A DNA stretch of 64,000 nt from Sphagnum compactum (GCA_965153455.1 OZ234494.1:2232001-2296000); one strand, 5' to 3'. Numbered from the stretch's first letter, positions 1 to 56,890 are shown. Notes: generated by a model not told the origin, from the letters alone. Made by a program: numbers and translations.

Positions 1-1863
1 CATAATTTGAGGTTGCATCTTTTTTCTTAAGCCAGATAAGTAAATGTTGTTTTGGTGTGATCACCTTTTAACGTTATCTCGCAGGTTCAAGATCAAATTA
101 AAGCCTAGATTTTTCTCATTGTTTACGTAGTTGTCACACTAACGCACTAAGTTCACCTATAGTTTTAAGCTTTTCAATAGGTCTCTCAACAAGTCTTTAG
201 CATGTGAACTTGGCCTAACAACTCCTAATGTTAGTGATGTGGTTTATTGCCTATCTTTTGAAAATTGTGTGTCAAGGGAATTAAAAGCCTCTCCTAACGT
301 TAACATTAATGTTTTATTTAAAACACTAGTCCTAAAAATAAAACATATATTTATTTATTTATTTATTTTTCAAAAACTTAGAACATTTTTTACATCAGAA
401 ACAAAAAAGTCTCAAGGTTTTAACAAGGTCTAACAAACATGAATTTATTCATGAATGTCTACTATTATTTGTAGACTTTTTATTTACATTCTTTCATATG
501 GTTTAACACATGCCTTTTTTTTCCCTTTCTTGCTTGTTTTTCTTTACGAAACTTTTCAAACTCTCACAAATTCAACTCTAGTTCGTGCCTAGGATTACAT
601 GTAAAATCCAAAAACAAACTTGGGGTCAAACAAAATGACTCGTGTTTATGGTCTTCATGAAGTTATTTTATGTGTTCATTTGTGCACCAAATTCGGTTTG
701 GTTTGCCTTTCATAATTTTCATTACCATAGGATTTAGGTTAGGTGGATGAGGTCGACGACGGAGATACATAATGTACATCGATCGGACAGTCCAATGTGT
801 GAGAGAGATGGAAGCTGAGAGAATGGAATAGGGCTGCAATCAACAGTCTCTGCCTCTTTGACGGGCCTTCTCATGCACTCTGGATCTTTCGCTCTGTGAT
901 TCTTGGAGCAGCAGCGGCCTCATCGAGGCAGCACCATGGTAAGCATTCGCTCCATCTATTCTTTGCCCTACCTCAATGCTCATGCTCTGTTTTCGCGGAA
1001 AAATTAGAAGAAAAGCAAGTAGAAGAAGAGTGAGAATAAGGAAGAGGAGGCGGGGAGGAAGAAAAGGGAAGGTAAGAGTCCTTTTTCTTGGTGACAAGCG
1101 TGTTAAGCCGAATTTCCTCCACCCACATTATCACTTCTATGCATGATTTAAGGATAAACAAATCACCTTGCATCTCACGTTTCAAAACAAACCAAATAGT
1201 TTTTTCTTTATAATCGAACTTTCAATAACAAAATTAAGTTCCACAACACAAAAAACATAGACTCGAGTCTCGGTTATGGAACCAAAAGATATAGATCACA
1301 TGCGGATTTAAAACTAAAACTCTGTATGTTTATTATATAGCTATGTTTTTATTTACACAAATTTTTTTTCATCTTTCTATTGTTTTTGTGTGATTAATAT
1401 GCCACACTATTCTTCTACCATGGACTTTACACACATAAACTATGTTAAAACCTTTTAAAACAAAAATCTCAATTCCTTTCACAATTTTATTCCATGAAAA
1501 TTTACACTTATACAATAACTCATTTCCATCAAGTGAAGGTCTCCCCAAAGCTTACAAACATTCACTTATATACTAAACACAAAGAAACTAAACAAAAAAA
1601 TTTCTAAAGTCTTAAAGTTCACACATCACATGGCTCCTTATGACTTCCCATGTGATTCCACATGCACATTAAAATGACAAAAACTTTACACATGAATTAT
1701 CATGTGCGAGTCAATTCATGTCACGACCCTAGCCTTGAGTTTACAACCAAGGCAAGGGCTTGTAAAGGTGTGGGCCAACAATGAAGCCCAAAAATCACAT
1801 TTCATGCTCCTTAGAATGTAGGAGAATGTGAGCGAATGAACCCACAAATTCCCAAATGGACTC

Positions 1864-2191
1864 TGTCATGACCATATGTGTGTTAGCTATAACATATAGT
1901 GTGCAATGGTAGCGAGTAATGCCTACTTAGGGTTTCTAGGTTTATTGTTAGAGGAGAGTGGCTCTTCTGGTAGGACCCACCTTCATGTTGTCAGTGGGGG
2001 TATAAAGTGTGAAAGAGGGCTCAAAGAACATAGTTCTTTGAGTTGAGCCTAGAGCGTTGGGAGTAATTGGAGTTAGTGGAGCTTCGAGCTATGGTGTCCC
2101 ATTAGCATCGGCCTAGATTCTCTAAGTGGAGTGGGCTTAGCTTAACTGTATGTGTTTGCATCACGAGTAGATTTTTCTCGTGACATTTTCA
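1864..2191 (+). repeat. Terminal repeat A1 (5' LTR-like) of the DNMT element
   Basis: About 95% identical to 18948-19287 by eye (about 14 substitutions, a 3-nt inversion, 2 indels). TGTCATGA...TCGTGACA short inverted ends. TATAAA at 2001-2006. Confidence 0.93.
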
Positions 2192-2207
2192 CTCAAAGAA
2201 CTATGTT
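2191..2207 (+). promoter_or_regulatory. Putative self-priming primer-binding site
   Basis: ACTCAAAGAACTATGTT is the exact reverse complement of 2027-2043, which lies 21-37 nt after the TATAAA. No TGG-type tRNA PBS follows the repeat. Confidence 0.55.
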
Positions 2208-3090
2208 TTTTCGGAATAGATAAACCGTGAGGGTTTTGTGATCTCACTCTCTGGTTGTGTGGCTGAATTGGGAGTGGGTGATGTCAAAAGGAGCGCCTTG
2301 GCGAGAGCTTTTCAACGCACCAAAGAATGTTGGATTTTGTTGAGCAGATCAAAAGTTATGATCATTTGAAGTTGCTAGTTTAGGGTTTGATAGTTTTTAG
2401 TGACAGTTTACCAACGACGTTAATTTCTTAGATAAGTGGAAATTTCCTTGAAGAAAGTTGCTGAAAATTGGTAAGAGTGTAGCTAGAAAATCGATCTACA
2501 ATCTTGCAAAGACATATTGTGTTTTCATTGAGCGGATTATGCGTTATGTTTGTTTTTGTGGTGATGGTTTTTTCTGGTTTGTGCACACCTAGTGCGGAAG
2601 CGCTGTCCAATTTTTAGCTAAATAACTAGGGAAGGTCATATGCTGCAATTTTGTGAAGTTGTTGCTTGAGGGCTGAATTACATCTAGGAATTGTTTTGGA
2701 TTTTTTTTTTGTGGAGCCAATTGGGAGTATTGACCTTCAAAAGATCTCAAGTTTGTGTAGATTTATGCCCACGTTTTTTTCAAGGGGTTTCGTAGGTCAT
2801 ATTTTGGCACACAAACCTTCTTTTTAGTTGAGTTTTGGAGGGAAGGAAGATCTAGTTGTCCTCTACATTCTGGTCAAAGTAGATTGGCATTTGGTGTAGG
2901 AACGGTGGAAATATGGTTGTTTGAGTGCTCGCAGCCCAATTTCGCAACTTTTGGCTATGGTGGATTAAGGATTTTGCCGGAAATCAAGCTTTTGGCTAGT
3001 GGGGAGCACATTTTTCGACTTGTTGTGGTGGGCCGGTTGGACGAGTTGAGCCGCTACTCAGCTAGGTGGTTGAGTTGAGTACTCGTTTCT

Positions 3091-5759
3091 CACTAGTAAA
3101 AAATGGTCATTTTGCGACTGGTCCATGTGACTAATTTTTAGTTGCAAGCGACATTTGCAACAAACATTTTAATAGTCGTGTTGGACAAGTCGCATTGACA
3201 CTAGTTGCAAACGACAACGAATTTTGGATGAAAGAAAAGTCAACAAAATATGCTTTTATCTTGTGACTAGTCATATACGTATTGTCGTTTGCAACTAAGA
3301 TGCGACTTTTTGGGTGAACAATGGGAACAAGTTATGTGTCGCCACGTGTCCCAACTCTTAATAATTGAAAATATTTTATTATTATTTTGAAATAATCTAA
3401 GATGTTTAATTTTTATGTTTGGATGGTTTAGATTGTGACATGTGGTGCAATAAAAATTTGCCATGTGGCATATTAATTGATATTTTCCAAATTAAATTTA
3501 AATCAATATTTAGGTATGTAGGTTGCATTAAGTACCTACCTATAGACCTACCTACCCATTTAGGCTAAACACCTATCTAGATAAGACTTATTATCTACCT
3601 AGGCCAAATACCTACTTGGGTAGGTAGGTAGAAAAATAGGTGAACAAGTTAGGGAAGTAGGTAGTTAGGTGTAAATACATGAATATTTATATTTTACTTT
3701 GGGTCAAGTCATATTTAATGACTCACCCCATATGCCCATTTATTTTCATATGTAAATGTAAGACAAAACACCTTGTTTATATATTTTTCAAGATGGGAAT
3801 GAAAGCCAAAACATATGGGATAAACTTTTTAGTTGCAAGTCGTTTATGATTAAAAATGTTCAGTTGCAAACGACTTGCAACTAAAAATTTTATCCCATAT
3901 GTTTTGATTATCATTCCCATCTTGAAAAGTACATAATTAAGTAAATAAATGACACCAACGAGTTAACTAATTAACTAATATAATTATTAATTATTTAACG
4001 AATGAAATATAGAAATTTAAATTAATAAACTTGCTAATTAATTAATTAACAACTAAACTAGAAACTAACTAATTATTTATAGTAATAATAATTAATATCT
4101 TATTATTACTGAATTTATTATATTATTATTAAATATTAATTAATTAATTAGTTAGATAAACCATAATATTATATTAATTATAATAATTTATCAACCAATT
4201 TAATTAACTAGTAATTGGCTAATATTGAAATATTTAGCTAATTATTACTAAGTAATAAATTATTATTTCGTAACCAAATAAATTAATATAATAACTGAAA
4301 TATTTAGTATTTAATTATTAATAACAATTAATTATAAATATTGACTATTAGGTTTTTTATATCTAATAATATAATTAAAACCTAGCCTAGGGTAACTATT
4401 TTATTATAATTACTCCCATTATTATTTTCATTTATATAGTTAATAATAAATATATCAGTAAATATTTGATATAAAAGTATCTTAATTCAATTATTATTGT
4501 AGCAAGTTCGTAGCCAAGGTTAACTATTTTATTATTATTATTCATTAATTCACTCATTTATTTATTTATGAAATAATACAATAAATATTATATATTTTTC
4601 CTTCAAAAATAATTTCTGCATTTGTATAATAATTTATTAGATTTCCATTCTAACTAATACAGTAATCATTATAAAATATAAAATAATAGAACTGAAAATT
4701 AGAAATATATATTAGTAAATGATTATAATCATTGAATTATTAATAATTAATATTAATAAATATCAACTATAAATTTTTAATACAAAAATTTAAAACTATA
4801 TATTAATATTTCTTAATAATTATTATATTAATCTAATAATATTTCATAATTGATTACTTATTATAATAATAACAATAATGTAATTTTTCACTAGCCTAGG
4901 TTAGCTATTTTATTATTATTATTATATGTCACTTGTTAGACTATTATGATTTATTATAATTAAGTTTTCATTTTTTTAAAAAATAAAAATAATTCGTAAT
5001 AAGTACATTAGTCATTTGAAAAAAAATTAATAATAATTTAATTATATATTAAAAATTTATAATTACTTCAATAATTATAGAATTATTTTTCTTATCATTC
5101 TAATATCATCATCATTATGATCATTATGTAACAAGATATTACTGTTTTTAAATTTTAGTTAAAGGTAATATTTAAATTTAGTTTTTATTACATGTAATTA
5201 ATATAATATTATAATATTATATTAATACAAATAATAATAAATGTCATTTTTAATAATTTTAAGAAGTATAATAAAATGGTTTGGATAAACTTATAATATG
5301 GGCACAATATATTTAACAAATATCTTATGTATAATTTTGATATACTCAAAATATATACCATTTAATGTAACCGTAATATCGAGGCCATTTATGATAATAA
5401 TAATATTTGAATACACATCTAATATGGTTGTTCATATACATTCAAATTATACATTTATAAATTCTAATACACCGAACTATATTTTTTAAAATTCACAAAA
5501 TATACCTTCATATACTTATAGGGTTACAACTAAATTGGTCACATTTGCAACTAATGGGACATAAATTGTTCTTATTGGATGAAAACTTAACTAAATGTTG
5601 TTCACATGGAAGGATGAACACCAAACTAGCTGCAAACTAGTTGCAAATATGACCAACACAAGAAATAGTTGCAAAAATGTCCAAATGTAGTTACAAATAA
5701 CTGATAGTCGCATGTAGTCGCAAAGAGATTGGTTACATTTTAGCCAATTTTTACTAGTG
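3091..5759. mobile_element. Non-autonomous CACTA (En/Spm) DNA transposon
   Basis: Starts CACTAGTAAAAAATGG and ends CCAATTTTTACTAGTG (15/16 TIR match). 3-bp TSD TCT at 3088-3090 and 5760-5762. Subterminal repeats (TAGTTGCAA, TAGTCGCA). Extremely AT-rich non-coding interior. Confidence 0.93.
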
Positions 5760-6841
5760 TCTGGTAATAAAAAGGACACGAGGTCGACGGTATTTAGTGG
5801 TGATTCAATTTGGGTACTGGGTTTGGTGATTGGGTCATCACGGAGCAGTTTGGTGGTCCTGTGGGGACCTTATCCTCCTCCATTAAGCATGGACTCAACT
5901 CCATTCGTTGTTGCGACGACTGCCATTCTACTAGTTTTTGTTCTTGCTGTAGACGATGTTGTGCGTTTCTATCCGCAACCATGCACACTGTAAGTCGACG
6001 ACTCCATCGTCCACTCTTCCCATTTCTTCTCCCAACTCGCAACTTACTTTCCTCAGAAGAAGCTGTAACACTAACAATACAAGAAGGCCAAACAAGCAAC
6101 AACGACATTATTACACCTCCTGCACTGCTAGTACTACTACTCCTAATACTCCCCAGCTTTCCACTCGAATGGTTCGTCCAGCTGCGCGGCGGAGCTACTA
6201 CATCCAATTCCAAGAAGCCACCACCAACAAATGTTTGTAAAACTTGCTGAGCATGCTGACTACAACATCCCCGAATCACCACCATTTCGCCTCTCTCCTC
6301 TTTCACTACCTCCCACAACAAAAACAACAAAACTCCTCAACCACCACCACCACCACCACTACCACAACCACAGCAGCGTCGTCGTCCCCAAAAAAAACTT
6401 CTTCTCAAAATGTCATCCCCAACTCCCCCCAAAATAAAAAAACTTGGAAGATGAGATCAAATCTAGAAAATGAATTTCAGGAATGAAAAGAGAGAGAGAG
6501 AGAGAGAGAGATCAAATTTTGCTCAAATCTGGTATCAAATTTGAAAACTTGTGTGAAGTGAGCACTAGTCAAAAAAAATTTAAGATCTGATCTAATTCAT
6601 TAGGAATTTCACTAACAATTTGGAACCGATTATGGGAATCATGGATTGAGTGACAAACAAAAGAAAAAATTTGCAAATGGAATTTGAGTGACAAAGGTCG
6701 ATCGATCGATCCAAGAGACTAAACTTTGATCGAATTTGGTCCAAATTTGAAGACTCGAGTGATGAGCACTAGGGTAATAGTAGCAGTAGTAAAGAGATGG
6801 GGGGGGGTGTCTATCTAATTCATTAGAAATTTCACTAACAT

Positions 6842-7224
6842 TTGAATGGTGGAGATGGTGGAGTTACACGTAGTGGGTTGAGGTATCGACTACCTTCCCC
6901 CACATCATCAGTTGTTGAGGAGGACGAGGTTATCGTGAATAACAAGTCTTCCATATTACCGTCTAGTATTGCGACCCCATTGATTTGGGATATGGACGAT
7001 GGTTCTGGGGCCATGAAGGGCTCAGGTGCAGTGGGCACCATCAAATTGGAAGACTTCATTCAGGAGTTTGATTCTTGGTGTGATATGCAGATGTTACGTA
7101 ACGTTGTTCTCATCCTTCTTGGCATGGAAGGGACTGTTTCAACACTTGGAGGGTCCTCCGATGGATGATTATCATGAGTTTCGGAGAGATCATGCTACTG
7201 AGATTGAGGACTGGAGGCAGCATT
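6842..7224 (+). pseudogene. Gag N-terminal part of the DNMT element, frameshifted and interrupted by the nested Gypsy
   Basis: KLEDFIQEFDSWCDMQ...LAWKGLFQHLEGPPMDDYHEFRRDHATEIEDWRQH continues as WSPSYVSITHGG at 14526 once the nested element and one TSD copy are removed. Confidence 0.7.
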
Positions 7225-8209
7225 TGACGCACTCCCAAGTTCCTAGTGGACCCACTTGAGGGTCCAAGTATGTGGCAATGCGGAAGGAGTTGGAACTTGG
7301 AACACGCTCCCGACTTCTAGCACTAGAGGGGGGGTGAGAGGGGTGTGCTAGAAGTCCCGGGATAGACTAGGAAGAATTGACAAGCTTATTCACTCACACG
7401 GGCCTGCACGCAACCCACACAAAGTGGTTAGTGCATAGTTGGAGCACCTTTGGTGCTAGGACGAGCCACGGGCAACACGGACACACAAGACTCACCACGG
7501 CCCGGACTTGGGGGAAGCCACCCCTTCCCCCTTATAGTATACTCTGCAGCTCTCCACGGAGGCTACATCCAAATGGCTATTTTTCTCGGGACTCCCGAGT
7601 GGGAGTCCCGAAATCGCGCCAAATGGGACTCCCGCGACTTTGGAGCCCCATAACTTTGCGAGCAGACCTCGGATCACAATGCGGTCTGAAGCAAAGTTGT
7701 AGATCTCGTCGAGACCTTTCCAACGGTATGTCGCACGTCCTCTGCATCCTAGTATTTCGGGTCGATTCCCGACTTTTAGTGGTCGGGAGTCAAAACTGGC
7801 AGACTCCCGGGAATTCGACTCCCGACCCTTCTTTTGGCCATAACTTGTGTTTCAGATGTCCAAATGAGCAATGCGAGCTCACTTTAGGTATCTACGCTTC
7901 AATAGCTTTCCAATGATATAAAGAACGTCACAAGACATTGAGGTTTGACACCTGCCATTGCTCTCTGAAGTTTCGGGAGTCCACCGGGACTCCATCTCCC
8001 AAAGTGGGAGTTGCCTTGGGAGTGTGAGTGTTCACTCCCTCACACTCCCTCACACTTTCTTACACTCCCGGGAATGTGATGTGACTCTCGGGCTTTCTCT
8101 TGCCTTGACTCCCGGGCTTCCTCTTGGTTTAACTCCCGGGCTTCCTCTTGGCCCGCAACCTTATAACCCCTTTGCCTTTGGTCCCGGGCCCAAAGCTGGG
8201 GTTGCGACA
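7225..8209 (-). repeat. 3' LTR of the chromovirus
   Basis: TGACGCAC...TTGCGACA. Matches 13536-14520 with only two differences spotted (7960/14271, 8198/14509). Confidence 0.97.
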
Positions 8210-8223
8210 CTCTCCCCCACTAG
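8210..8223 (-). promoter_or_regulatory. Polypurine tract
   Basis: Minus strand CTAGTGGGGGAGAG immediately before the 3' LTR. Confidence 0.8.
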
Positions 8224-8995
8224 AAGAAGAGGTCAATGTCCTCATTGACACTTAGAATTTCTTTCAACAATTGCAATTGCTTTCTTTTGGATCCTTGGCC
8301 ATCAAATGCCGACTCCTTGCGGCCGGACCTTGCCTCAAGCTAACTTAGGCGTCCCCAAGCTTCCAACACTCTCTTGGCAAGTCCAAGGGTGTCTCAATAG
8401 AAACCCTCCATTGCTTCATCAAAAGACCTAACTAGCCTAATTGACGAAGCCCTCATTTGGGAGGCCATTTTCCAACCTTCCCCTCATGAGGAACTCAAGC
8501 CAAGCCTAATCTTGACCTAAGCTACTTGACATGACTCCTTTCCCAATCTTGCGCCTTGATCACAACAATCAAGCCTTTCCTAAAGGTATGCTTATCAAGG
8601 TACGAGAAGCGACGTTTAGGCTTTGCAAAAGCCTAAGTCCCAAGATACGCGATTATAGTACACGAACGGGGTCATGACTTCCCGCGTTGGCCGCCACTAC
8701 CAACCAACCCCTTGGGATGCACTTTGGGCATGTGCACGTCCCCGCAAGCTCACCTTGCTTGCCTCCTCTTTTGGGACCAAAATTTCTCTTAGCCCCCAAG
8801 TAGGAGTCCGATTTTGATTTGGGCTTACGCAAGAAAGTTCCATTTGTCCATGCCACTTGACAACGCCCCCCTTTCTAACATACTATTATGTTTGTGATGC
8901 AATCTCTCGAAAGTCTTTAGCCTTTATTTCACTTACAACTTGATTTGGTACATTTGTGTAACTTTCCACCCGTTAAAAGAAAGGTGATGTCCTCA

Positions 8996-10153
8996 TCACG
9001 CTCTATGTTTCCTTTGCTTTTTAGCCGGTCTATTGTGGAATTCTTCTATGGCTTCTTGGGCATGTTCCATGTCGGACTCATTCACCCAAGATGCCTCTAT
9101 TGGATGGTATCCTTTCCACTTGACCAAGTACTCCCGCTCTCGCCCCTTTAGTTGCCTTGACTTGAGCACGGCCTCCACTTCAAATTCCGGTTCATTATGA
9201 ACCAAATCCGGAGGGGGCCTTGAATTGTGCTCTCGCTCGGGCCTTGAGGCATCACGGACGACCGGCTTCAAAAGCGAAACATGAAATATGGGATGAACCT
9301 TGAGATTTTCCGGTAGTTCTAACTTGTAAGTGTCGGGAAATTTCTTTTCCAACACTTTGAATGGACCCGCATATGGGCCCAAGAACTTATGGCTCAATCC
9401 TTCGGGCAACCGGAAGTTCTTGATGTTCAACCATACTTCATCCCCTTCTTCAAAATTCACCTCTCGACGGGACTTGTCCGCAAAACTCTTGTACCTTTTA
9501 TGCGCCTTCTCAAGATTGGCCTTGGCCATCTCCCACAAGCGCCGCCTTTCTTCATCAAGTTGTGTGACCATGGGCACTTCCTCACTTGCATCACTCGGGG
9601 GTTGTCCCACCCAAGTTGTGGGCACAATTGGTGACTTGCCCGTCACCATTTGAAATGGGGTGGCCCCCGTTGCCGAATGCTCCGAATTGTTGTAACAAAA
9701 TTCGGCCAACTCCAAATGGTCCACCCAATCTTGTTGATCCGCCGCCACATAATTCCTTAGGAATTGTTGGATCACCAAGTTCACCCTCTCGGTTTGTCCA
9801 TTCGTTTGGGGCCGAAAGGAAGTGCTCATCTTGAGCTCGGACCCCATGCGCTTCCACAAGGCTCTCCAAAACTTGCTTGTGAACTTGGGGTCTCGGTCCG
9901 ACACAATGTCCTTTGGGAGGCCATGATGCTTGAACACGTGGGTGAAGAACAACCTTCCCGTCTCTTGGGCCGTTGCACTATCCTTGGTAGGAATGAAATG
10001 TGCCATCTTGCTAAACCGATCCACCACCACCATGATCGCATCAAACCCCTTTGATGGTGGCAAACTCACCATGAAATCCATGGAGACACTTTCCCACGGC
10101 CCTTCCGGAATGGGTAATGGTCGCAACAATCCCGCTTGCTTTTTATTGAGTGC
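8996..10153 (-). CDS. Integrase core, GPY/F motif and chromodomain (pol C-terminus, out of frame with the upstream pol)
   Basis: [18 protein letters not shown] and QTERVN (DDE motifs); GPYAGPFKV; chromodomain [11 protein letters not shown]...EYLVKWKGY...ASWV. Confidence 0.93.
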
Positions 10154-13100
10154 CGGTTTTGTTGGCAAGTCAAGCAAGTCTTCACGTATTCCTCCGCATC
10201 CTCCTTCAAGTTGGGCCAATAATAGGACTTCTTGAGGAATGTGGTGGTGCGCTTTGCACCACCGTGACCCGCAAGGGGCCCATCATGGCATTCCTTCAAA
10301 AGCACATCTCTTAGCCCCCCTTTTGGAACATAGAGCCGACTTTGCTTATACCACAAAAGTCCATCTCGCAAGTGGAAGTGGGACTTGATCCCCTTTTGAA
10401 TGTCTTGCTTCCTTTCCTTGGCAAATTCATCCCGGCGGCTCCCAAGTCGAACATCCTTTTGGAACTTTGTTTCCCCCACATACACCACTTTGAGTTGGTG
10501 TTTCCGACTCAATGCATCCGGCACCACATTTTCCTTCTCGGGCTTATGCCGAATGTCCACATTGAACAAAGCCAATGTGTCTTGCCATCTCACTTGTTTT
10601 GATGACAACTTTGGTTGAGTTGCGAAGTACTTCAAGGTGACATTGTCGGTCCACACCACCACATCTTTGGAACCTATGTAGTGGCCCCAAGTCTTGAGAC
10701 AATGTATCACGGCCCACATTTCCTTCTCATGGGTCGGCCACCTTCGCTCCGTCTCATTCAACTTCTTGCTTTCGAAGGCCACCGGCCTTCCATCTTGCAC
10801 TAGGACTCCTCCTATGGCAAAGTCGGAAGCATCGGAATGGATCTCAAAGTCCTTGTCAAAATCGGGCAACTTCAACACGGGCGCCTTCACCAAAATGCCT
10901 TTCAAAGTCTCAAAGGCCTCATTGCATGCCTCCTCCCATTCATAAGTCCCGGATGACTTCTTCAAAAGGTTTGTCAAAGGTGTGGCTATCTTTGCAAAGT
11001 TCTTGATGAACTTGCGATAATAAGAAGCCAATCCCAAAAAGGACCTTAAGGCGGGAACGGACTTAGGCGGTTCCCAATCCAAGATTGCCTTCACCTTGTG
11101 GTCATCCATTTTCAAACCTTCTTGGGTGATCCTATGCCCAAGGAAGTCCACCTCCGAGACTCCAAACTCACATTTCTCGAACTTGGCATACAACTTGTTT
11201 TCTTTTAACCTTTGGAACACCTTACGAAGGTGTTCCGCATGCTCCTCCAAGGAGCTACTATAGATCAAAATGTCGTCTATGTAGACGACCACAAAATCAT
11301 CAAGCCACTCTCGGAAAATGTCATTCATGAGGGTGCAAAATGTGGCGGGTGCATTGGTGAGCCCAAATGGCATCACCAAGAATTCATATGAACCATACCT
11401 TGTGCGGCAAGCGGTTTTCTCTTCATCCCCTTGTGCAATTCGAATTTGGTAGTATCCCGAACGTAGGTCAATCCTACTAAACACTTTGGCTCCCGAAAGC
11501 CGATCAAACAAGTCATCAATCCGAGGCAATGGGTACCGATTCTTCACCGTCACCTTGTTGAGGGCTCTATAATCTACGCACATCCTCAAAGTCCCATCCT
11601 TCTTGTGAACAAAAAGGACGGGCGCCCCATATGGTGACTTGCTAGGCTTGATGTATCCCTTTGCAAGGAGTTCTTCGAGTTGAACCTTGAGCTCTTTTAA
11701 CTCCTCATGACTCATTCGATACGGGGCCTTGGCGGGAGGTGCCACTCCCGGGACCACCTCTATGGCATGGTCCACTTGTCTTCTCGGGGGCAACTCATCG
11801 GGCAATTCTTCGGGCATCACATCTGGGAATTCCTCTAACACTTGCTTGATGCACTTGTGGGGGCTCACCACCTTGGTGGCCTCCTTTGGTTCAAACTCAT
11901 CCAAAACCCGCATCACACATAACATGCCATAGCCTCCCCCACATTCTTTTTCCAAGTTCTTTCCCAACATCAAGTGGATGGTGGTCCCACCCACACTAGG
12001 CACTTCATGTGCCTTCACTCGCACAATCCCATTCTTGGATGGGATCCTAATTAACCTATTGTGCCCTTCTACGAGCACATTGTTACGTGTGATGAACTCC
12101 ATTCCCAAAATGCAATCCATGCCCCCTAAGGTGGAAACTAACAAATCCACCTTGCCTTTCCAATTCCCCAATTGGAAAGGCACATCTCTTGCTTGCAACT
12201 TGGTGGGATGGGGAATCCCATCCGCAAAGTGCACCTCTATGGGTGCTTTGAGCTCCTCCAACCGGAGCTCCATTCTTTGGGCACTTTCTTGGGTTATGAA
12301 GTTGTGGGAAGCGCCTGTGTCCAAAAGACATAAAACTTCCCGCTTAGAAACTTTCCCTTTTAAGAAAATAAGGCGGTTACATTCACCTTGGACTAGGTTG
12401 GCGGAAAGGGCACTTACCTTAGGAGCCCCCTTCCCCGATTTGGGTTTGGGGCAATCCTTGGAGTAATGCCCCACTTCATTACAATTGAAGCATACTCCCT
12501 TGGGTTTCCCACTAGCATCTCCCTTGGGTTGGCTCACTTTGAAAGGAGCCCCCTTCTTGATAAAATTTCCCTTGGGTTTAAAACCCGAGCCTTGGAATTG
12601 TTTAAGCTTGTCCCCTTTTGAGGTGTCTTGGCCTCGGTTCCATTCCCCTTCATGGCGTGCCTTCTTATGAGGGAACTTGTTATCCCTTTTGAATCCGGAC
12701 TTCTCACCACACCCAACATCCGAAAAGCCTTCCACTTTCATGATGGCTTCGGTTAGTGAGGTGGGCCAATTCTCCTCAAGTTTGCGTTTGGCCCAAGTGG
12801 GAAGTCCCATCACAAAGTGGCACACCCGGTCTAACTCATGCATATGCCGAATCTCAAGCATGAGTTCGGAGTAAGCCCTCACATATTGGCGCAAGTTGTC
12901 ATTGCTCCCATTCTCAAGGTCACGGAGTTTGCATCTTGAAATGTAGTCGGAATTCTTGGGAATGAATTCCAACTCAATACGCTCCTTGAAGAATTCCCAT
13001 GTGTAGCCATGGGTCTTCCCTTCTTCTTGCCTCACCGTCCTCCACCATGTGGAGGCATAGCCCTTCAAATAGGATTGGGCAAGTTCCACGGCCGAATGCC

Positions 13101-13485
13101 GACCAACCTTGGCGGCATGAAGGTAGTCCTCCATTTCCGCAAGCCAAGCATCCACAACCTTCCGATCCCGGGCCCCATCAAAGTTCCCGGGCCTAGCGGG
13201 CTTGAACCCCACACTTTTGGATGAACCTCCCTTAAGGGCCTCAACCAATTCACTAAAATCGGGCCTATTCATTTTGAGTAAGACCTCTAATTGTTCCGGG
13301 GTGAAGAGCACCGCATTTGATTGCTCCCCTTCATTTTCATCGTCCTCATGGCTATCACGGTCTTCCTCACCTTCGGAAACATTTTGTTCTTCCCCACTCA
13401 TGGCTTGGGGTGCAACATCCGGGTCTTGGGTGGGTTCTTCCACCACGATCTCTTGGACTAGCTTGCGGGTCTTCCTTGGTGCCAT
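10066..13485 (-). CDS. Gag-Pol polyprotein (Gag, CCHC knuckle, protease, RT, RNase H, integrase Zn finger)
   Basis: Likely start MAPRK at 13485. [35 protein letters not shown]...GH...CLTC. Frameshifts into the integrase frame near 10153. Confidence 0.96.
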
Positions 13486-13521
13486 CGGGACTCTCCAATA
13501 AGTGGATCGAGCTCTCCCCGA

Positions 13522-13533
13522 GCTCTGATACCA
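13522..13533 (-). promoter_or_regulatory. tRNA-iMet primer binding site
   Basis: Minus strand TGGTATCAGAGC, 2 nt inside the 5' LTR boundary. Confidence 0.95.
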
Positions 13534-13535
13534 AG

Positions 13536-14520
13536 TGACGCACTCCCAAGTTCCTAGTGGACCCACTTGAGGGTCCAAGTATGTGGCAATGCGGAAGGAG
13601 TTGGAACTTGGAACACGCTCCCGACTTCTAGCACTAGAGGGGGGGTGAGAGGGGTGTGCTAGAAGTCCCGGGATAGACTAGGAAGAATTGACAAGCTTAT
13701 TCACTCACACGGGCCTGCACGCAACCCACACAAAGTGGTTAGTGCATAGTTGGAGCACCTTTGGTGCTAGGACGAGCCACGGGCAACACGGACACACAAG
13801 ACTCACCACGGCCCGGACTTGGGGGAAGCCACCCCTTCCCCCTTATAGTATACTCTGCAGCTCTCCACGGAGGCTACATCCAAATGGCTATTTTTCTCGG
13901 GACTCCCGAGTGGGAGTCCCGAAATCGCGCCAAATGGGACTCCCGCGACTTTGGAGCCCCATAACTTTGCGAGCAGACCTCGGATCACAATGCGGTCTGA
14001 AGCAAAGTTGTAGATCTCGTCGAGACCTTTCCAACGGTATGTCGCACGTCCTCTGCATCCTAGTATTTCGGGTCGATTCCCGACTTTTAGTGGTCGGGAG
14101 TCAAAACTGGCAGACTCCCGGGAATTCGACTCCCGACCCTTCTTTTGGCCATAACTTGTGTTTCAGATGTCCAAATGAGCAATGCGAGCTCACTTTAGGT
14201 ATCTACGCTTCAATAGCTTTCCAATGATATAAAGAACGTCACAAGACATTGAGGTTTGACACCTGCCATTACTCTCTGAAGTTTCGGGAGTCCACCGGGA
14301 CTCCATCTCCCAAAGTGGGAGTTGCCTTGGGAGTGTGAGTGTTCACTCCCTCACACTCCCTCACACTTTCTTACACTCCCGGGAATGTGATGTGACTCTC
14401 GGGCTTTCTCTTGCCTTGACTCCCGGGCTTCCTCTTGGTTTAACTCCCGGGCTTCCTCTTGGCCCGCAACCTTATAACCCCTTTGCCTTTGGTCCCGGGC
14501 CCAAAGCTAGGGTTGCGACA
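13536..14520 (-). repeat. 5' LTR of the chromovirus
   Basis: Near-identical to 7225-8209 and adjacent to the PBS. Confidence 0.97.
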
Positions 14521-14525
14521 GCATT

Positions 14526-16143
14526 GGTCTCCATCCTATGTATCTATTACTCACGGTGGTGTTGTTAGTGGTGGTACTACTACACCGTCTACTCCTAGTA
14601 CGAGCACACAAGTTGTTCCCCCACCTCTGTTTAACCCTATCACGGGAGTTCTTTTTGAGGCTGAAGAAGAACTACCAGGGGGTGAAGACGGAGAAGTTGA
14701 AGAGTCTTTAAGAATTTGAACGAAGACTGGTGAGAGTCTTCGTGAGGCATACACTCGTATGCGATGGTTAATTGCAGTTACCCAGGGGGTGACGGAGGCT
14801 CAGGCAGTCCAATTTTGGTATGGGATTCTAGACAAGGAGTTGCGACAGAGAGCACGCGGGTGACTCTCATGAGTGACGATTCTCCCACATTGGCCCATGT
14901 GTTTGCTTTTTCTGAGAAGATAGAGCTTAACATGGTGGAGGAGAGGGTGGTGACATCTGGATTCAATAGGGATATAGTTACTACTTCTCGTGGACAACAG
15001 TCCACCTCACAACCTCATACTGGTGGAGGTGGGAGTCGTGGAGGTCAGGTACGACCTCAGTCAGGTTCTGGAGGGACGGGTGCACAAAGACCGTTGCCTT
15101 CATTCGTTAGTCAACAGCAGGGACAATGTTGTTGGACATGTGGTGGTGCTCATATTCGGAGGGATTGTCCACAGGAGAGTGGTGGACGGACTTTGGCTGA
15201 TGGATCTCAGTCGACACAAGTTCAATGTGATAACTGTGGCCGGGTCGGCCACCCTCGTGAGCGTTGTTTTAACCTTTACCCAGAATTGAGATTAGGTCGT
15301 GGTGGAGCGGCTCAAAGAGGTCGTGGTGGTAGAGGTGGTAGAGGTGGTGGGGGTGGTAGAGGTACACCAACGGTCAGGGCACCTCCCGTGATCACTCCTC
15401 CGCTTACGACAGAGGCAGCTATGGCTGCTAGGATTGAGCAGTTGGAGCAAAGGCTTGCTACCATGGCAAGTTTCCAGCATCGATCACATTCAAGAGGTGA
15501 GGCTCCCACATCTTATGGGGGAGATGATCTCTTTTATATGGCTAGTGTAGCAAAAATTGAGGCGTCCATTGCAGTGACGAGAGGCGTCACTCAAGCCTCG
15601 GAGCCACGTGGGGCAACTGTGGAGTTGGATCCACAGAAGGGTGAAGCTGGTAGACAGGCCAGGCTTCCCCAATCATTCTTGTTGTCTGAAGTGGTTAGGA
15701 CTCCTTCCATGGTTCCTACACCACCTATTGAGCCAACAGTGGGGCCAACAACATCGACATCACATGTAGTGGACACGGATGTATCATTGAGTGCAATGTC
15801 GCGGATGGTGACTTCAGTGTTGGGATCTCCAACATTTTCGGCTAATGATTTGATGGCGTCAGGAGTTGACTTAACTCGTGTATTTCGACTAGCAGCCACA
15901 TTGTGTGAACATGGGAGTGTTGTTGCTACAAGTGTCGAGGTGTGTGAGGGTGTTGATGTGGGGCAACGTGTGGCGGGGGATGTTGTTGTGGAGCAACTCG
16001 TGGTATCAGGTGTGGATAGTCCTTGGCAGGAGGCGACAGCTAAGATGGATGCATTACCAGCTCGATCAGCCATTAATCGTGAGAGGCTTACACCTGGTGT
16101 GTGTGTGTGTTGGATAATCGGAATGGTATTTTCCGGTTGGTGA
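14526..16143 (+). pseudogene. Gag C-terminal part of the DNMT element, with two zinc knuckles and an RGG-rich region
   Basis: GESLREAYTRM gag-like motif; CWTCGGAHIRRDC and CDNCGRVGHPRERC; RGRGGRGGRGG. Several frameshifts, the last in a (GT)n run near 16100. Confidence 0.8.
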
Positions 16144-16560
16144 GTCCTACGGGCCAGGTGTATAGACCAAATCGGGTTTTGTTGGATTCTGGTGCCCAAC
16201 CCTTGATGTTGGGGAAGGCAGCATGTATTGGTTTGGGTATTCGAAGGTCAAAGCTTGAACCGTGCCCATTCCAAATTTAGACATCACTTGGTGGAGCCAG
16301 TGGTAGGTCTAACTTCATGACACGTGAGAGATTGTCGGTGCAAATGAAACCGAATCATGTGACAAATAGCTCTAAGTTAGAAGTGACTGCTGTTGTTACA
16401 GCAGCTAAATCGTATGATGTACTAGTTGGAGGTGCCGTGTTGTATCCGGTGGGTTTTTAGATGGATTAGTGGACAAAGACAACAACTTATCAACCTGGTT
16501 GGCAGTCTGGGGATGGACGGATGAGCCAGGTGCCTGTGAGATTTATTTCTGGGGTTCGAC
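16110..16560 (+). pseudogene. Retroviral-type aspartic protease
   Basis: RVLLDSGAQPLMLGK (DSG at 16185-16193) and SYDVLVGG, in the same frame as the downstream DNMT-RT ORF. In-frame TAG stops at 16278, 16458 and 16467. Confidence 0.85.
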
Positions 16561-16899
16561 CAGGAGGGTCTCCCCCAGAGGTGTTGGCATCAGTTGCTGG
16601 TTTTAGTGGAGTGGTCACTTGGCTAGGTGACTTGTTGCAGGGCAACATTTTAGCTATTGACACTTCGGTCTACAAGGATATAGAGGAGGTTTCTAGCTTT
16701 GTTGCAGCAGGGTCCTCCTCATTGGATGTTCCACTTTGGCGTTCGAGTGGGGTGTTACGGCAAGATGCCGATCGTTTGGTATCACAAGCTTAGCGTGAGG
16801 CTTTTGTGCCTGTGGAGGAGGAGGAGGTTCCACAACGGACTCCTATTTCTGGTCCTGTTGGGTTGTCTCCATTGGATACTACACCCATTGCGTGGGAAT

Positions 16900-17870
16900 A
16901 TCCTTCCGAGGGTATTTGCGTGTTGGATCTATTTGGTGGGATCAGCACTGGTTTGGCAACAGTGCTTCAAGCGGGTATTCTAGTTCGGAAGTACCTTTAC
17001 GTGGAGAGAGATGAGACCGCGAGGAGGGTTTCATCGCGCCATCTTGCATTATTGAAGCGGCGATATCCTGAGTTGTTGCCGAGGTCGGCTATTCGAGGAT
17101 ATCAGCGAGCTTTGCCATCAGACATTGCATTGTTGGGGGCGGAAGACCTTGCGAGAGTTGGTCCTATTAATTTGGTGATTGCTGGATGGCCATGCCAGGT
17201 TCATATTCGGGCTGGTCATGGTGAGGGATTACGTGACCCTCAATCTCGTATGTTTTGGGAGATGTTGCGGGTGTCATGCCATCTTCAGACACATCAGGCA
17301 CGTGTTCCCGCGTACATTCTGGAGAATGTACCTTTGTTGGGTGATACTAGGTCTCATGTGATGGCAAGTGTACACCAAATCCGGTCTTGGATTGGACCAA
17401 CGGTTTTATTGGATGCAGCGAGGGTTGGTTCGCGTGCTCATCATCCCCGATTGTGGTGGACGAACTTGTTACCAAGTGAGGTGTTGAAACGGGCATATGA
17501 GACAGTACCACGATCTTCTCACCTCATAGTGGATAGTATCTTAGATATTGGGCGACGTTCTCAGGTGGTGAAAGTTGTTGATAGGTCACCCATGGAAGTG
17601 GTGAACCGAGTGGGACAGCCTAGGATGGCGTTACCCACATTTGTCAGTTTTCCAGCATCACATGCCTATAGAGAGGGTGGTCCAGGGCTTGTATGGGATA
17701 GTTGTTTGCAGCAATTAGTGGAGCCCAATGCCGATGAGAGAGAGCGTGTAATGGGGTTTCCTACAGGAGTGACATTTGTCCCTTCCATTTCCAAGGCTTC
17801 ACGTCGACAAGTGTTGGGTCAAGCCATGGACAATTGTTTGACTTGGATTGTTAGCCTTGGTATGGCTGAG
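16900..17870 (+). CDS. C5 cytosine DNA methyltransferase domain (DNMT3-like, non-permuted) within the retroelement pol ORF 16806-18983
   Basis: Ordered motifs: I VLDLFGGISTG, II YVERD, IV IAGWPCQ (PC at 17190-17195), VI YILENV, VIII AHHPRLWWTN, IX ERERVMGFPTGVT, X RRQVLGQAM. Confidence 0.92.
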
Positions 17871-18149
17871 CAGCGTCGGCTCAGAGCCACATTTGTAGTA
17901 GTTACACCTCTTGTGAGCTCGCTGTCCACCGTGACGGTAGAGGCATCGACTGGGGGCGAGGAAAGTTGTACTTTTCATCCTTGGAGTACATGGGATGTGT
18001 TGGGAAAGCATGTGAAGGTTGTGGCCCATGCTGTTGGAGGAGTTTGTTGCTCCATTGGTGTTCCATTGGGTGACTTGGAGGAGCGTGTGGTTTTTCCCAA
18101 GGTTTTTGCGTCGCAATCCATGGCATCGTCCTCTTCCTCTAGTGTGTGT

Positions 18150-18935
18150 ATCGAGGAGACTTGGGAGTCTTTGATGGGGCCCAAGCTAATAGGAGGAGAG
18201 AGGCGACGGTTAATGCAATTCCTAAGAGCTTACAGGATTTGTTTTACCTTTAGTATGAACGAGTTGGGTGCTTTGATTGGACTTGGTATACGGATTGAGT
18301 TGGCTAGTGACACGCCAATCTTCCGTCATCCTTATAGATATAGTGATATGGAGAGGGACTTGATTCGGAGTCGGACGTTGGATCTATTGGAGGCTGGATT
18401 AGTGGAGTTGTCGCATGGTGAATACGCATCAGCCATTGTCATGCCTGCCAAAAAGGATGTACATGGTAACTACACGGATAGGCGGATGTGTGGAGACTAC
18501 CGTCCTATCAATCGGCAGACTAAGTCCGATAAGTATGCCATGCCTACACTTGAAGAGATCTTTGATGTTGTGGGACATGCGAAGGTTTTTAATACACTTG
18601 ATCTTCGAGCAGGGTACCATCAGTTGCCGATTCGAGACGAGGACAAGGCCAAGACCACATTTTGGGGCGTCAACTCTCACGGGAAGGATTGTTTGTATCA
18701 GTGGAAGTTCTTACCCTTTGGGTTGAAGAATGCGCCTGCCGAGTTTCAACGTGTGATGGATAGGATCTTAGCAGGGTTGGATTTTGTTCGGTGTTATATC
18801 GATGATATTGTGGTATATAGTGATACCGTGGAAGAACACCAAATTCATCTACAAATTGTGTTTGAGCGGTTGAAGGCTCATGGTCTTCGTCTACATCCTG
18901 GGAAGTGTAAGTTCTTCCAGGAGAGTGTGGAGTAT
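18150..18935 (+). CDS. Ty3/Gypsy-type reverse transcriptase, truncated after ESVEY (RNase H and integrase missing)
   Basis: PYRYS, RMCGDYRPIN, LDLRAGYHQ, LPFGLKNAPAEFQR, CYIDD (YIDD at 18795-18806), KCKF. In frame with the methyltransferase. Confidence 0.95.
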
Positions 18936-18947
18936 TCGCACGATAAC

Positions 18948-19401
18948 TGTCATGACCATATGTGTGTTAGCTATAACATATAGTGTGCTATGGTAGCGAG
19001 TAATGCCTACTTAGGGTTTCTAGGTTTAGGGTTAGAGGAGAGTGGCTCTTCTGGTAGGACCCACCCTCATGTTGTGAGTGGGGGTATAAAGTGTGAGAGA
19101 GGGCTCAAAGAACTATGTTCTTTGAGTTGAGCCTAGAGCGTTGGGAGTAGTTGGAGTTAGTGGAGCTTCAAGCTATGGTGTCCCGTTAGCATCAGCCTAG
19201 ATTTCTCTGAGTGGAGTGGGCTTGGCTTGACTGTATGTGTTTGCATCATGAGTTTTATGATAGTAGATTTTTCTCGTGACATTTTCAATTGTGGTACACA
19301 TGTATTTGTGTATGCTCTCGTCTATGTTATGTGTTTGTGTGTGTATGTGAGTATGGTATGTCAGCGATGTATGTTGTATGACGATATGTATTCGCACGAC
19401 A
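18948..19401 (+). repeat. 3' terminal region of the DNMT element: repeat A2 (18948-19287) plus GT-rich segment B (19288-19401)
   Basis: A2 matches A1. B has no counterpart at the 5' end, but its last 14 nt recur at 18932-18945. Confidence 0.88.
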
Positions 19402-22064
19402 ACTCCCACTTTGAGAGTTGGAATCCCAATGGACTCTCAAATTTTCAAAGAATAATTTTAGAGGTCAATACTCATTGGTTTGAAGAGTTTCTTATACCAT
19501 TGGAAAGCTCTTGAAATGTAGATGTCTAAAATGGGTTCACATGTCTCATTTAAGTACTTAAAACACAAGTTATGGCCGAAAAAAAAGGTCGAAAGTCAAA
19601 GTGCCAATTTGACTCCCGACCATTAAAAGTTGAGAATCGCCCTGATTTACTTGTGTATAGGTGACGTGCTATATATAGGTGGAAGATCTCGATGAGGGCT
19701 ACAACTTTGCTTCAAACCTCACCTCAATCAAAAGTTAGCACAAAAAATTATGGGCCTCTAAAGTTGGAAAAGTCTCGATTTCAAGAATTTCAAAACTCTC
19801 GACTTGGGAGTCTTGGGACAAAATGACATTTGGGTGCAACCCCCATGGCCAGGCATAAAGAATATTATAAGGGGGAAGGTGGTGGCTTCCCCCAAGTCCA
19901 GGCCATGGTGAGTCTTATGAGTTCGTGTATGTTCGTGATTCGTCTGTGCACCAAAAATGTTCCAACTATGCACTAACCAACTTGCTATTTGGTTTGTGCA
20001 GGTCTATGTGAATAATTGACTCGCTTGTCACTTGTCCTAATCCCCATCCCAGAATTCCAACACACCCTTCTACCCCCCGAAGTGTTGCAAGCTAGGGAAC
20101 GTACCTCAACTCTTTTTTCCGTTATTTTCACCTTTGCACTCATAGTTGAGTCTGTCAAAGAATTTGGGGGTGCATCAATGCACATTAATGTGTCAAGGAC
20201 TTTTCATATGATTTTACACATGAATTATCATGTGACAATCAATGCACATAATTAAAATTATGACCAAACTTTTATGAAATTCAACTACCAAATAAATTAC
20301 CAAACTTAACCGTTAAATAATTACATAAATAATAATGTAATTACATTAGGTTACATGGTCATTGCTGATGTCAAAATAGAAGGCATGGTTTTCCTTTGTA
20401 CCCAAAAATAAAATAAAATAATGTGTTTATTGTCAACAACTTGTATCAGATCTATTATTGAACTCAAAATAGTTTTAAAACACAAAAAAGAGGTGTGAAA
20501 AATCAGATCTATAGTTGAATTCCCTACAAGGAAAAAAAAAGGTGTGGGTTAAAAAACCCTTATGGCTTAACGTACAAAACATTGTCAAGAAAAAACATTG
20601 GACCCCCCTCCCCTTAACATGAAATCCCCAAAAGGACTCTCAAATGCAAAGCAATTTCTCAAGTAAACGGCCGCATAATTCAATATTTGAAAAAAAATGA
20701 CCATTGCCGTATGTCTATGTCTATCTCCCAATTTCATTGAACATCCTTTACATTCAGGATTTTTAATTAGTTAATAAAATAGGTACATATTACATACCAA
20801 AAAAAGAAAAAAAAAACACGTAAGTGCCCAAGGATTTTTTTCATTTTTACTTTATTCCCAACATGTTCCCTAGGTTCCTAATGTATTCCCCAAGGATGTT
20901 CCCAATAACACCTCACTTTCATCCCATATGTTTTGTCCAAAGGCCTCCCCTTCACACCTATATAGGTGGGCCAAGGGGGGAGGCACTCTATAGTTTCAAC
21001 TCTTTTTTTTTGCAATGGGCCAATCAAATTGGCTCATTACCAAAAAACAAAAGTTGGATTCATAAATACCCCCAGTTTATAATATTACATAAATTGTGGA
21101 CAACATCACCAATGGAGTTTTTCTTTGGTGATGAGATTTTGAAAATTCCCTGTGTTTTCTAGAACAAAAGCTTGCTAAAATGTTGTGATTTTTCTTTCCA
21201 AAGATAAATTTGTCATAGTTTGAGACAGTTTTTAGTCTTGGAGCATTCTTTTAACAATTCTCTCCAGTTCCAATAATATTTTACAAACTTGTTGCCAATT
21301 AATACCTACAAAAATATGAGAAAAACGAAAAAAATGACCAAAAAAAATTAAATGAAAAATGGAAAATTAATTTAAAATAGAGAAAAAGTTTGAAGCGGCG
21401 GCCACACTGCGGCGTTCTTTTGTGTTTCCCTTTTCTCTGTTTTTTGCGGGAAAGGGGAAAACTAAGGCTTAAATTTATGTTTTTTTAATCCTTTGTTTTA
21501 ACGCGTATGCTTTTTTACTTTTTTTCCGTTTTACTGTCGTCGTCTCCCGTTCGAAGAAGCTCGCGGAGCGCGCTATCGGGTGCTTACCGAAGGCGACAGC
21601 AACAGCGGCAGCGTCGTCGTCGTTGCGGTGCACTCGCTGTGCGGGTGTAGCTATCGGTGCACTCGTTTTGCAGCGTGATCTTCTGCGCAGAAGCGAGAAT
21701 CCGCCAATTTTGCGGCAATATTTTGATCTTCTTTTTTGAAAGCCCAGTGCAACAATGGAGGCACACGAAAGATCCAAAAATTAAAATTGGTGTGTTTTCT
21801 GATCATAGCTCCTCCTCTTCCTCCTCATCAATATTTCTGTAGTGAGCTTTTATCGATGATGTGCATCGCCCAGAGTTGTGATCTAGTACTTGGATATTGT
21901 TTCTTTCTGTGAAGAGCTCCGTCGATTACTGGTTTCGTGAGCGTGAGAGACGAGTGGCTAGGTTCCCAGGCGCAGTAAGCTAAATTACGTGCTTTCAACA
22001 GAAAAGTGAGGAGGTTTTTTTTCTTCTTTCTTTTTCGGTCGGAGATTGGAACTTGCAATCTCAG

Positions 22065-56392: not shown

Positions 56393-56890
56393 ATGAATGA
56401 TTTCCTTTCATCCATTTTGGTGCAACCCTAATCACGACTCCAGGCTTTCTCTCTCTCTCTTTCCTTCTCTTCTGTCCCACACTGTCTTCGATGTCTGTTG
56501 TCTATATTCCTCTGTTTGTCTTTCAGGCTCTTGTTGTTTTCTGGCTTTGCTTGTAATGCACGAATGATTTCTATTCATCCATTTTAGTGAAACCCTAAAT
56601 TACGACCCCAGAGGCTCTCTGTCTCTGTCTCTTTTCTGTCCCACACTAGCTTTAATGGTCTGTTCGTCTGTTCCTTTTTTTTGTCTTTGATGCTCTTGTT
56701 GTTTTCTGGCTTTGTTTGTACTGAATGAATGAATTCCTTTCATCCATTCTGGTGAAACCCTAAATCAGAACCCCAGGCGAGCGCGCGCTCTCTCCCTCTC
56801 TCTTGTGTCCCACACCATCTTCAATGGTCAATTCGTCTATTCCTCTGTTGTCTTTGACGCTCTCTTGTTCTTTTCTGGCTTTGCTTGTTG
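56393..56890 (+). repeat. Three about 167-bp tandem units with telo-box-like AAACCCTAA upstream of the RING gene
   Basis: Unit: GAATGATTTCCTTTCATCCATT..TGAAACCCTAAA..GTCCCACAC..CTCTTGTTGTTTTCTGGCTTTGCTTGT at about 56393, 56562 and 56727. Confidence 0.88.

Follow-up and report, generated by a model that had tools for sequence, protein, structure and literature searches.

A stretch of 64,000 nucleotides from the moss Sphagnum compactum (GCA_965153455.1, OZ234494.1:2232001-2296000; hereafter "the window") harbors, at positions 1864-19401, a dead relic copy of a Gypsy-type retrotransposon. Of the Gypsy set, this copy retains gag, protease (PR), and reverse transcriptase (RT) only, together with a C5 cytosine DNA methyltransferase (DNMT) domain located between PR and RT. 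Very probably, it belongs to a bryophyte Gypsy family of about 9.2 kb, delimited by split direct repeats and carrying a DNMT3-like domain within its Pol polyprotein. The features of the copy are listed in Table 1.

The methyltransferase and reverse transcriptase frame

The core of the copy is a 729-residue stop-to-stop open reading frame (ORF) at 16794-18983 (+). It displays the C5-methyltransferase motifs LDLFGGI (starting at 16923), YVERD (16998), GWPCQ (17184), ENV (17322), HHPRLWWTN (17439), ERERVMGFP (17736), and RRQVLGQ (17802), followed by the YIDD motif of the RT (18795). Pfam recognizes PF00145 on ORF residues 110-187 (E 9.7e-6, 25.7 bits, for a curated cut-off of 22) and RVT_1 on residues 561-714 (E 8.1e-30). 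The protease motif LLDSGA (DSG at 16185) shares the frame, and the interval between protease and DNMT is broken by exactly four stops, all TAG (16278, 16458, 16467, and 16791), at which other copies mostly read CAG, CAG or CAA, TAT, and TGG. A chance frame is excluded, because the protein is 63-96% identical to that of 80 independent loci, all obtained from metagenome contigs in a single search with the DNMT as query.

A phmmer search against PDB sequences returns 41 distinct matches at E<=1, headed by the catalytic domain of DNMT3A (E 1.9e-9). The match is made of two colinear stretches, query residues 41-228 on chain residues 7-173 and 314-344 on 235-265, spanning motifs I-VIII and IX-X. In what we take to be their numbering, the catalytic motifs I, IV (PC), VI (ENV), VIII, IX, and X are unpermuted and colinear with DNMT3A. 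The plant enzyme DRM (4onj) scores only E 0.049, and the bacterial M.HaeIII and M.HhaI reach 0.29 and 0.75, within a range of 0.3-0.9 for the two. Since DNMT3A aligns colinearly with a far better score than DRM, the order is DNMT3-like, and a circular permutation of the DRM kind is ruled out.

The AlphaFold model of the domain is of moderate confidence (pLDDT 56, pTM 0.61). Compared with the PDB by Foldseek, it retrieves, among the matches listed, only the catalytic domains of DNMT3A, 3B, and 3C (E about 1e-10), with TM scores of 0.58-0.65 on the full DNMT3 catalytic-domain chains. The model thus provides moderate support for a predicted methyltransferase fold nearest to that of DNMT3. The reader domains of canonical DNMT3s, PWWP and ADD, have no Pfam match in the window frame, in the related polyprotein P0123, or in the related locus L039 (see below for both). 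The ESM Atlas offers a generic cluster ("C-5 methylase, Streptophyta") and, by features, phage methylase clusters, to which no weight was given.

Some members of the C5-methyltransferase fold act on RNA, and the domain adjoins an RT. It might in principle place 5-methylcytosine (m5C) on RNA in a DNMT2-like manner, for example on the genomic RNA of the element or on a primer. We consider this very unlikely: among the matches listed, the DNA enzymes DNMT3A/B/C are the closest solved structures both in sequence and in fold, and no DNMT2 occurs among the 41 PDB matches.

The preliminary description of this DNA had proposed a DNMT3-like methyltransferase, in unpermuted order, sharing a frame with a Gypsy RT and, but for four TAGs, with the upstream protease. 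The motifs lie where it had placed them, and the four stops are exactly those that it had named. The colinear DNMT3A match and the weak DRM score bear out the motif order, and the search with the PF00145 hidden Markov model, which it had suggested as a check, gives a score above the curated cut-off.

A Gypsy family of bryophytes and its relatives

In the related loci, the DNMT keeps the same place. The RT is found within 2.5 kb downstream of it in 43 of the 46 loci having at least 1.5 kb after the domain, and the PR upstream in 43 of the 52 having at least 1.3 kb before it; in four loci, the linker alone precedes the DNMT. Full copies are about 9.1-9.3 kb long, longer where insertions are present, and follow the order gag-PR-DNMT-RT-RNase H (RH)-integrase (INT)-PHD. 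They are colinear with a 2358-residue polyprotein (P0123, PR-DNMT-RT-RH-INT-PHD) and possess the PR-RT-RH-INT order of Gypsy elements, with a DDE integrase and a CCHC gag. One near-intact locus, L039, holds gag and pol in a single frame over 6.5 kb, with two stops; in it, Pfam identifies a zf-CCHC (5.4e-7), the DNMT (E 6.8e-12, 45.9 bits), the RT, the RNase H, and the integrase zinc domain. In Marchantia polymorpha, proteins P0121 and P0122 unite gag, PR, and DNMT in one unbroken chain, 64-70% identical to the window over 649-806 residues. Upstream of its full copy, locus L066 has a second stretch belonging to the family, a partial RT-RH fragment at 3076-5193.

The named relatives within the family are all from bryophytes: the mosses Sphagnum troendelagicum, S. 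tenellum, S. jensenii, and S. fallax, and the liverworts Marchantia polymorpha, Calypogeia fissa, and Riccia sorocarpa. Closest to the window are Sphagnum proteins, with 75-92% identity for proteins from four species, and 67% for one protein of S. fallax. These identities, together with an AP2-like frame that scores under the Pfam cut-off (see below), by themselves make a peat moss the likely host. Marchantia polymorpha harbors more than 20 gene models of the family, on several chromosomes. None of the 24 sequencing runs listed contains half or more of the sampled words, five RNA runs reaching 6-15%; with contigs of one DNA run and of three metatranscriptomes from moss or plants, 29 of 30 bins are covered at a likeness of at least 85%. 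Transcription is not claimed, because RNA libraries may carry DNA and contigs give no expression level.

The ends of the element have an unusual layout. An A repeat of about 330-340 bp opens the element (A1) and recurs downstream of the coding region (A2); in the window copy, A1 is 94.5% identical to 18948-19253, and the A1-A2 identity is 86-94.5% in the eight elements having both repeats, the window copy included. A second unit, B (114 bp), was matched in 25 loci: in eight of them it stands on both sides of A2, and the other 17 have a single B. Flanks upstream of A1 are unrelated between loci. The termini are TG..CA, and a 4-bp target duplication lies just outside A1 and B2. It is perfect in five of the six elements with both ends in view (the window copy, L058, L066, L071, and L038) and has one mismatch in L034. 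From the positions of A and B, the flanks, and the target duplications, the integrated unit is A1 ... B1-A2-B2 with TG..CA ends. The canonical layout of long terminal repeats (LTRs), with identical repeats at both ends, is rejected, the right end being B1-A2-B2 and terminating in B2, not in A2. Split direct repeats are combined here with a DDE integrase.

These observations bear on whether the DNMT came to the window copy in a single event, as a host DNMT3 captured once, a neighboring host gene, or an assembly chimera. Nothing was found in favor of such an origin, to which we give almost no credence. The position of the domain is conserved in the testable loci and in the liverwort proteins, and in several loci target duplications bracket an element that contains it. 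Its nearest relatives are moreover 229 clusters of retroelement-type DNMTs (E<=1e-30), with scores of 150-320 bits, where DNMT3A reaches only about 40. A one-off capture or a chimera is therefore rejected, and the comparison supports the DNMT as a likely family-wide module of Pol. The preliminary description had likewise assigned the methyltransferase to the Pol polyprotein of a moss family, between PR and RT, as the related loci and the similarity to Sphagnum proteins (67-92%) support. The two findings that it had held to speak against this, copies of the family devoid of the domain and a tight grouping with a host DNMT gene, are not what the loci and the scores reveal.

The family is part of a larger set. 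Searching 1.84 billion representative proteins yields 1832 matches at E<=1e-3, 743 at E<=1e-10, and the above 229 at E<=1e-30. The best 150 of the 1832 are all of the retroelement type, and many are polyproteins of 1000-3400 residues. Among 108 long DNMT-matching proteins, 88 fit an RT-RH-DNMT-INT(-PHD) order and 20 the PR-DNMT-RT order of the window and of Marchantia. In a FastTree phylogeny of DNMT domains (186 rows), the two orders are split by one branch (support 99), and the 15 rows from bryophytes group together (support 100). In an RT-RH tree, a branch with support 97 has the 62 rows with the DNMT after the RNase H on one side, and a different branch, with support 99, does the same for 10 DNMT-less Gypsy rows; this DNMT-less sample is small, stems from a DNMT-led search, and includes three Marchantia family fragments mislabelled as DNMT-less. 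The RT-RH tree hints weakly at a single DNMT-bearing Gypsy lineage, which may have acquired the domain once. No Klebsormidium protein is present among the named matches listed.

The RH-DNMT-INT polyproteins with a C-terminal PHD (P0125-P0157, P0150, P0161, and others) include those of the chlorophytes Scenedesmus and Chromochloris. The "pol" protein of Scenedesmus sp. PABB004 (P0150), a protein of Chromochloris zofingiensis (P0161), and many metagenome proteins belong to one DNMT clade with the bryophyte family and are like it in Gypsy backbone and C-terminal PHD, but their DNMT is inserted between RNase H and integrase. No description of the RH-DNMT-INT-PHD architecture was found in the literature searched.

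Retrotransposons encoding a DNMT are rare. The text of de Mendoza et al. 2018 (PMC5890265) reports them in Symbiodinium and Klebsormidium nitens only, in agreement with the preliminary description, which knew them from dinoflagellates and Klebsormidium; later papers cite, in the passages available, "streptophytes (Gypsy-DNMT3)" after that study. The closest known system is KnitGypsy-Dnmt3 of K. nitens, which also possesses an unpermuted DNMT3-related domain in an intronless Gypsy Pol frame (PMC5890265). The legend of its Fig. 4c mentions a DIRS-like repeat layout with Gypsy domains (PMC5890265), a likeness drawn from the text description only. The copies of both systems are silent and methylated-looking. 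Its host, however, is an alga, whereas the host here is a land plant, a Sphagnum moss, and relatives of the element occur in liverworts. SymbioDIRS-Dnmt3 and SymbioLINE-Dnmt of Symbiodinium are likewise retrotransposons encoding a C5 DNMT, but have DIRS (tyrosine recombinase) and LINE backbones, and their authors describe them as independent acquisitions (PMC5890265). As to the repeats, PAT and Ngaro elements have the same A1 left end and the same B1-A2-B2 right end downstream of the coding region, according to the available text of PMC4157794; unlike them, the present element has a DDE integrase, TG..CA ends, and 4-bp duplications, and is devoid of a tyrosine recombinase.

Host DNMT3s, such as animal DNMT3A/B/C and the bryophyte MpDNMT3b (Mp5g09290) and PpDNMT3b, share the catalytic fold and the motif order. 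The element domain, in contrast, is only about 20-23% identical to them and is embedded in a polyprotein. The host gene named in bioRxiv 10.1101/2021.02.12.428880 lies at a locus different from those of the Marchantia family models (Mp_6g11220, Mp_4g09160, and others). The literature searched, whose supplements and figures might list copies, yielded no account of a retrotransposon with a DNMT in any moss or liverwort, and the searched text of Marchantia and Physcomitrium methylation papers leaves element-borne DNMTs unmentioned. The family is a land-plant member of the rare Gypsy-DNMT3 kind already known from Klebsormidium, and its novelty is for this reason narrower than the preliminary description implied. 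Its value lies in the bryophyte breadth, the presence in Marchantia, and the two-architecture radiation of DNMT-bearing Gypsy elements.

Decay, selection, and a possible role of the enzyme

The window copy has 90 private differences over 2783 comparable sites, of which 75 are transitions and 62 are C>T or G>A. This is the pattern usually left in plant transposons that are methylated and decaying.

Beneath this decay, the DNMT seems to have been constrained. Residues of its motifs are invariant or nearly so in a family alignment that reaches 45% identity; FGG, the PC of motif IV, ENV, and the R-x-R and W-W-T-N of motif VIII are kept down to that level. Ratios of nonsynonymous to synonymous substitutions (dN/dS) were obtained from Nei-Gojobori counts on codon alignments. 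In deep comparisons of L039 with nine other copies, the ratio for the DNMT is 0.11-0.26 (0.11-0.19 in eight of the nine), at a saturated dS (1.7-2.4), and that for the DNMT-RT linker 0.27-0.35. The Ka/Ks given for the DNMT of KnitGypsy-Dnmt3 in the text of PMC5890265 is below 0.2, to be set beside the above eight values with their saturated dS. By this rough measure, the DNMT was probably held under purifying selection as part of Pol, in which case it would have served the element rather than the host.

Methylation is the main weapon of hosts against transposons, and a transposon with its own de novo methyltransferase is counter-intuitive for that reason. One mechanism, which we put forward tentatively as possible rather than probable, is that the enzyme methylates the new DNA of its own element. 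It would be made with Pol, then freed by the protease or still joined to the RT, and would act de novo on newly made or newly integrated element DNA. The methylation state would then be set by the element itself, which might dampen its own activity or make the copy resemble host DNA, and the PHD finger of the integrase may help select chromatin. The conserved catalytic motifs and the apparent purifying selection make such self-methylation a reasonable idea.

Several observations weigh against this view of the family and its enzyme. Every locus was ascertained via the DNMT, and sister copies devoid of it would have escaped the search. Confidence in the structure model is only moderate, and the deep dN/dS ratios are rough because of the saturation of dS. 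In shallow comparisons (112 pairs from 16 sequences), the dN/dS of the DNMT is 0.4-1.0, with a median of 0.53, next to medians of 0.37 for the linker and 0.36 for the RT; these medians mix selection with neutral decay, as would be expected if most of the divergence arose by decay after insertion. In L032 and L033, dN relative to the window is 0.21 for the DNMT versus 0.05 for the RT, and the DNMT segment has nine stops; this subfamily may be recombinant, or its spread may have followed a relaxation of constraint on the domain. Most copies are decayed, and a full-length, stop-free DNMT is present in only three of the 80 loci (L004, L007, and L039). Finally, in the yeast assay described in the text of PMC5890265, no methylation resulted from the KnitGypsy-Dnmt3 domain expressed in isolation; only the SymbioDIRS-Dnmt3 domains methylated DNA there, de novo at CG, and these dinoflagellate DIRS elements are so far the sole ones with a demonstrated activity.

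The yeast result would fit a non-catalytic Pol module, for example a DNA- or S-adenosylmethionine (SAM)-binding scaffold. Such a role is unlikely, however. A pure scaffold has no need of the catalytic and SAM-binding motifs that are kept to 45% identity, and the assay is inconclusive, as its authors state, because human DNMT3B failed in it too (PMC5890265).

Self-methylation draws on the same domain evidence as another possibility, that its targets are not the cDNA of its own element but, in trans, the DNA of the host or competing elements, or that it serves to mark the site of insertion. The PHD finger at the integrase end of full copies suggests chromatin reading, and possible effects on the host epigenome are raised in the text of de Mendoza et al. 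(PMC5890265). As reported there, on the other hand, the K. nitens methylome is ordinary and plant-like despite its elements, and the sequence offers nothing to separate action in cis from action in trans. We regard action in trans as improbable, to much the same extent as a scaffold.

Methylation of its own new DNA thus remains our favored, if tentative, role for the enzyme. Taken together, the data might reflect an old DNMT3-bearing Gypsy lineage that persists in land plants, namely Sphagnum mosses and three liverwort genera, with near-intact and possibly transcribed copies, within a much larger, largely undescribed green-lineage radiation of two architectures; as a whole, this joint reading is plausible but somewhat doubtful. 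Should it be true and the enzymes active, bryophyte methylomes would be shaped in part by de novo methyltransferases that elements encode, and these could be dissected genetically in Marchantia. The Gypsy-DNMT3 kind is now placed in land plants, and specifically in Marchantia polymorpha, where the question of function is testable because knock-outs, methylomes, and expression data are routine. On the practical side, counts of DNMT3-like genes in bryophyte annotations will take in copies of the element.

Anatomy of the window copy and its surroundings

Table 1. Features of the DNMT-bearing Gypsy copy, in window positions.
Feature	Position	Strand	Basis or remark
Left target-site duplication, ACTC	1860..1863	.	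Repeated after the element at 19402-19405
A1, 5' terminal repeat (starts TGTCATG, ends GACATTTTCA)	1864..2191	+	Matches the 5'/3' repeats of the family in related loci
Leader, part 1	2192..3090	+	Colinear, 80-91%, with the leader of related loci
Foreign insertion 1, AT-rich, TTGCAAC-type subterminal repeats	3091..5751	.	Absent from other copies
Leader, part 2	5752..5869	+	Comparison with related loci
Foreign insertion 2, in the leader	5870..6845	.	Absent from other copies; related loci join 5869 to 6846
Leader, part 3	6846..6991	+	Comparison with related loci
Start of gag, ATG at 6992, frameshift near 7101-7114	6992..7224	+	Residues 1-83 of Marchantia P0121/P0122 match in two frames
Nested, unrelated Gypsy splitting gag	7225..14520	-	LTRs, TG..CA ends, 5-bp duplication GCATT (7220-7224, 14521-14525)
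Remainder of gag	14526..16100	+	Match to P0121 residues 81-595
(GT)n run, 2 extra bases putting gag out of the pol frame	16097..16110	+	Related contigs are without the 2 bases at 16097
Protease (DSG at 16185) and linker, four TAGs	16101..16793	+	Frame reading
DNMT3-like C5 cytosine methyltransferase domain, open	16794..17990	+	Pfam, phmmer, model, alignment with relatives
Linker and reverse transcriptase, cut off at 18935	17991..18935	+	RVT_1; related contigs continue differently past 18935
Final bases of internal repeat B1	18936..18947	+	Full copies have B1 directly before A2
A2, second copy of A	18948..19287	+	Repeat comparison with A1 and related loci
B2, terminal 114-bp copy of B (ends CGCACGACA)	19288..19401	+	Kept after A2 in other copies; flanks diverge beyond
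Right target-site duplication, ACTC	19402..19405	.	Same four bases as 1860..1863

The window copy cannot perform any of the functions of the element: its gag is split and frameshifted, four TAGs interrupt the protease-linker region, the DNMT bears lesions, and RNase H, integrase, and PHD are gone. The gag remainder displays two C-X2-C-X4-H-X4-C knuckles (15130-15168 and 15226-15267), for which Pfam zf-CCHC returns nothing at E 0.1 or better in the window copy. The frame change at the (GT)n run is not a programmed gag-pol frameshift, as relatives are without the two bases and L039 reads through in a single frame. Within or next to motifs IV and VIII, the DNMT differs from that of related copies, and next to motif X it is one residue short, relatives carrying an extra CTG behind 17831. 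A protein search of the window gives no match to the RNase H or integrase of the DNMT-bearing family, and the sequence jumps from 18935 to the last dozen bases of B1; RNase H, integrase, PHD, and most of B1 have thus been deleted.

Three foreign sequences interrupt the copy. The first insertion in the leader (2.66 kb) shows repeated subterminal motifs of the TTGCAAC/GTTGCAA type and a border duplication of about 10 bp, related loci joining 3090 straight to 5752 with an overlap of about 10 bp; by these features it looks like a non-autonomous DNA transposon. The second (about 976 bp) has neither a long frame nor inverted repeats. The Gypsy nested in gag belongs to another family and is young and apparently intact: its 985-bp LTRs are 99.8% identical, and a 1203-residue ORF encodes gag, PR, RT, RH, and an integrase zinc domain. 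Directly after the DNMT element, 19400-20078 (-) is 73% similar to the LTR of this nested Gypsy and could represent a solo LTR from some related family.

Further downstream, a 424-residue ORF (21984-23258) matches an AP2-type domain (E 3e-6, 27.9 bits) under the Pfam cut-off of 33.3, a hint that a plant transcription-factor gene might stand beside the transposon cluster. At 43176-48099 and 56387-56888, direct repeats of several families occur, in tandem or dispersed, their units measuring about 160 bp.

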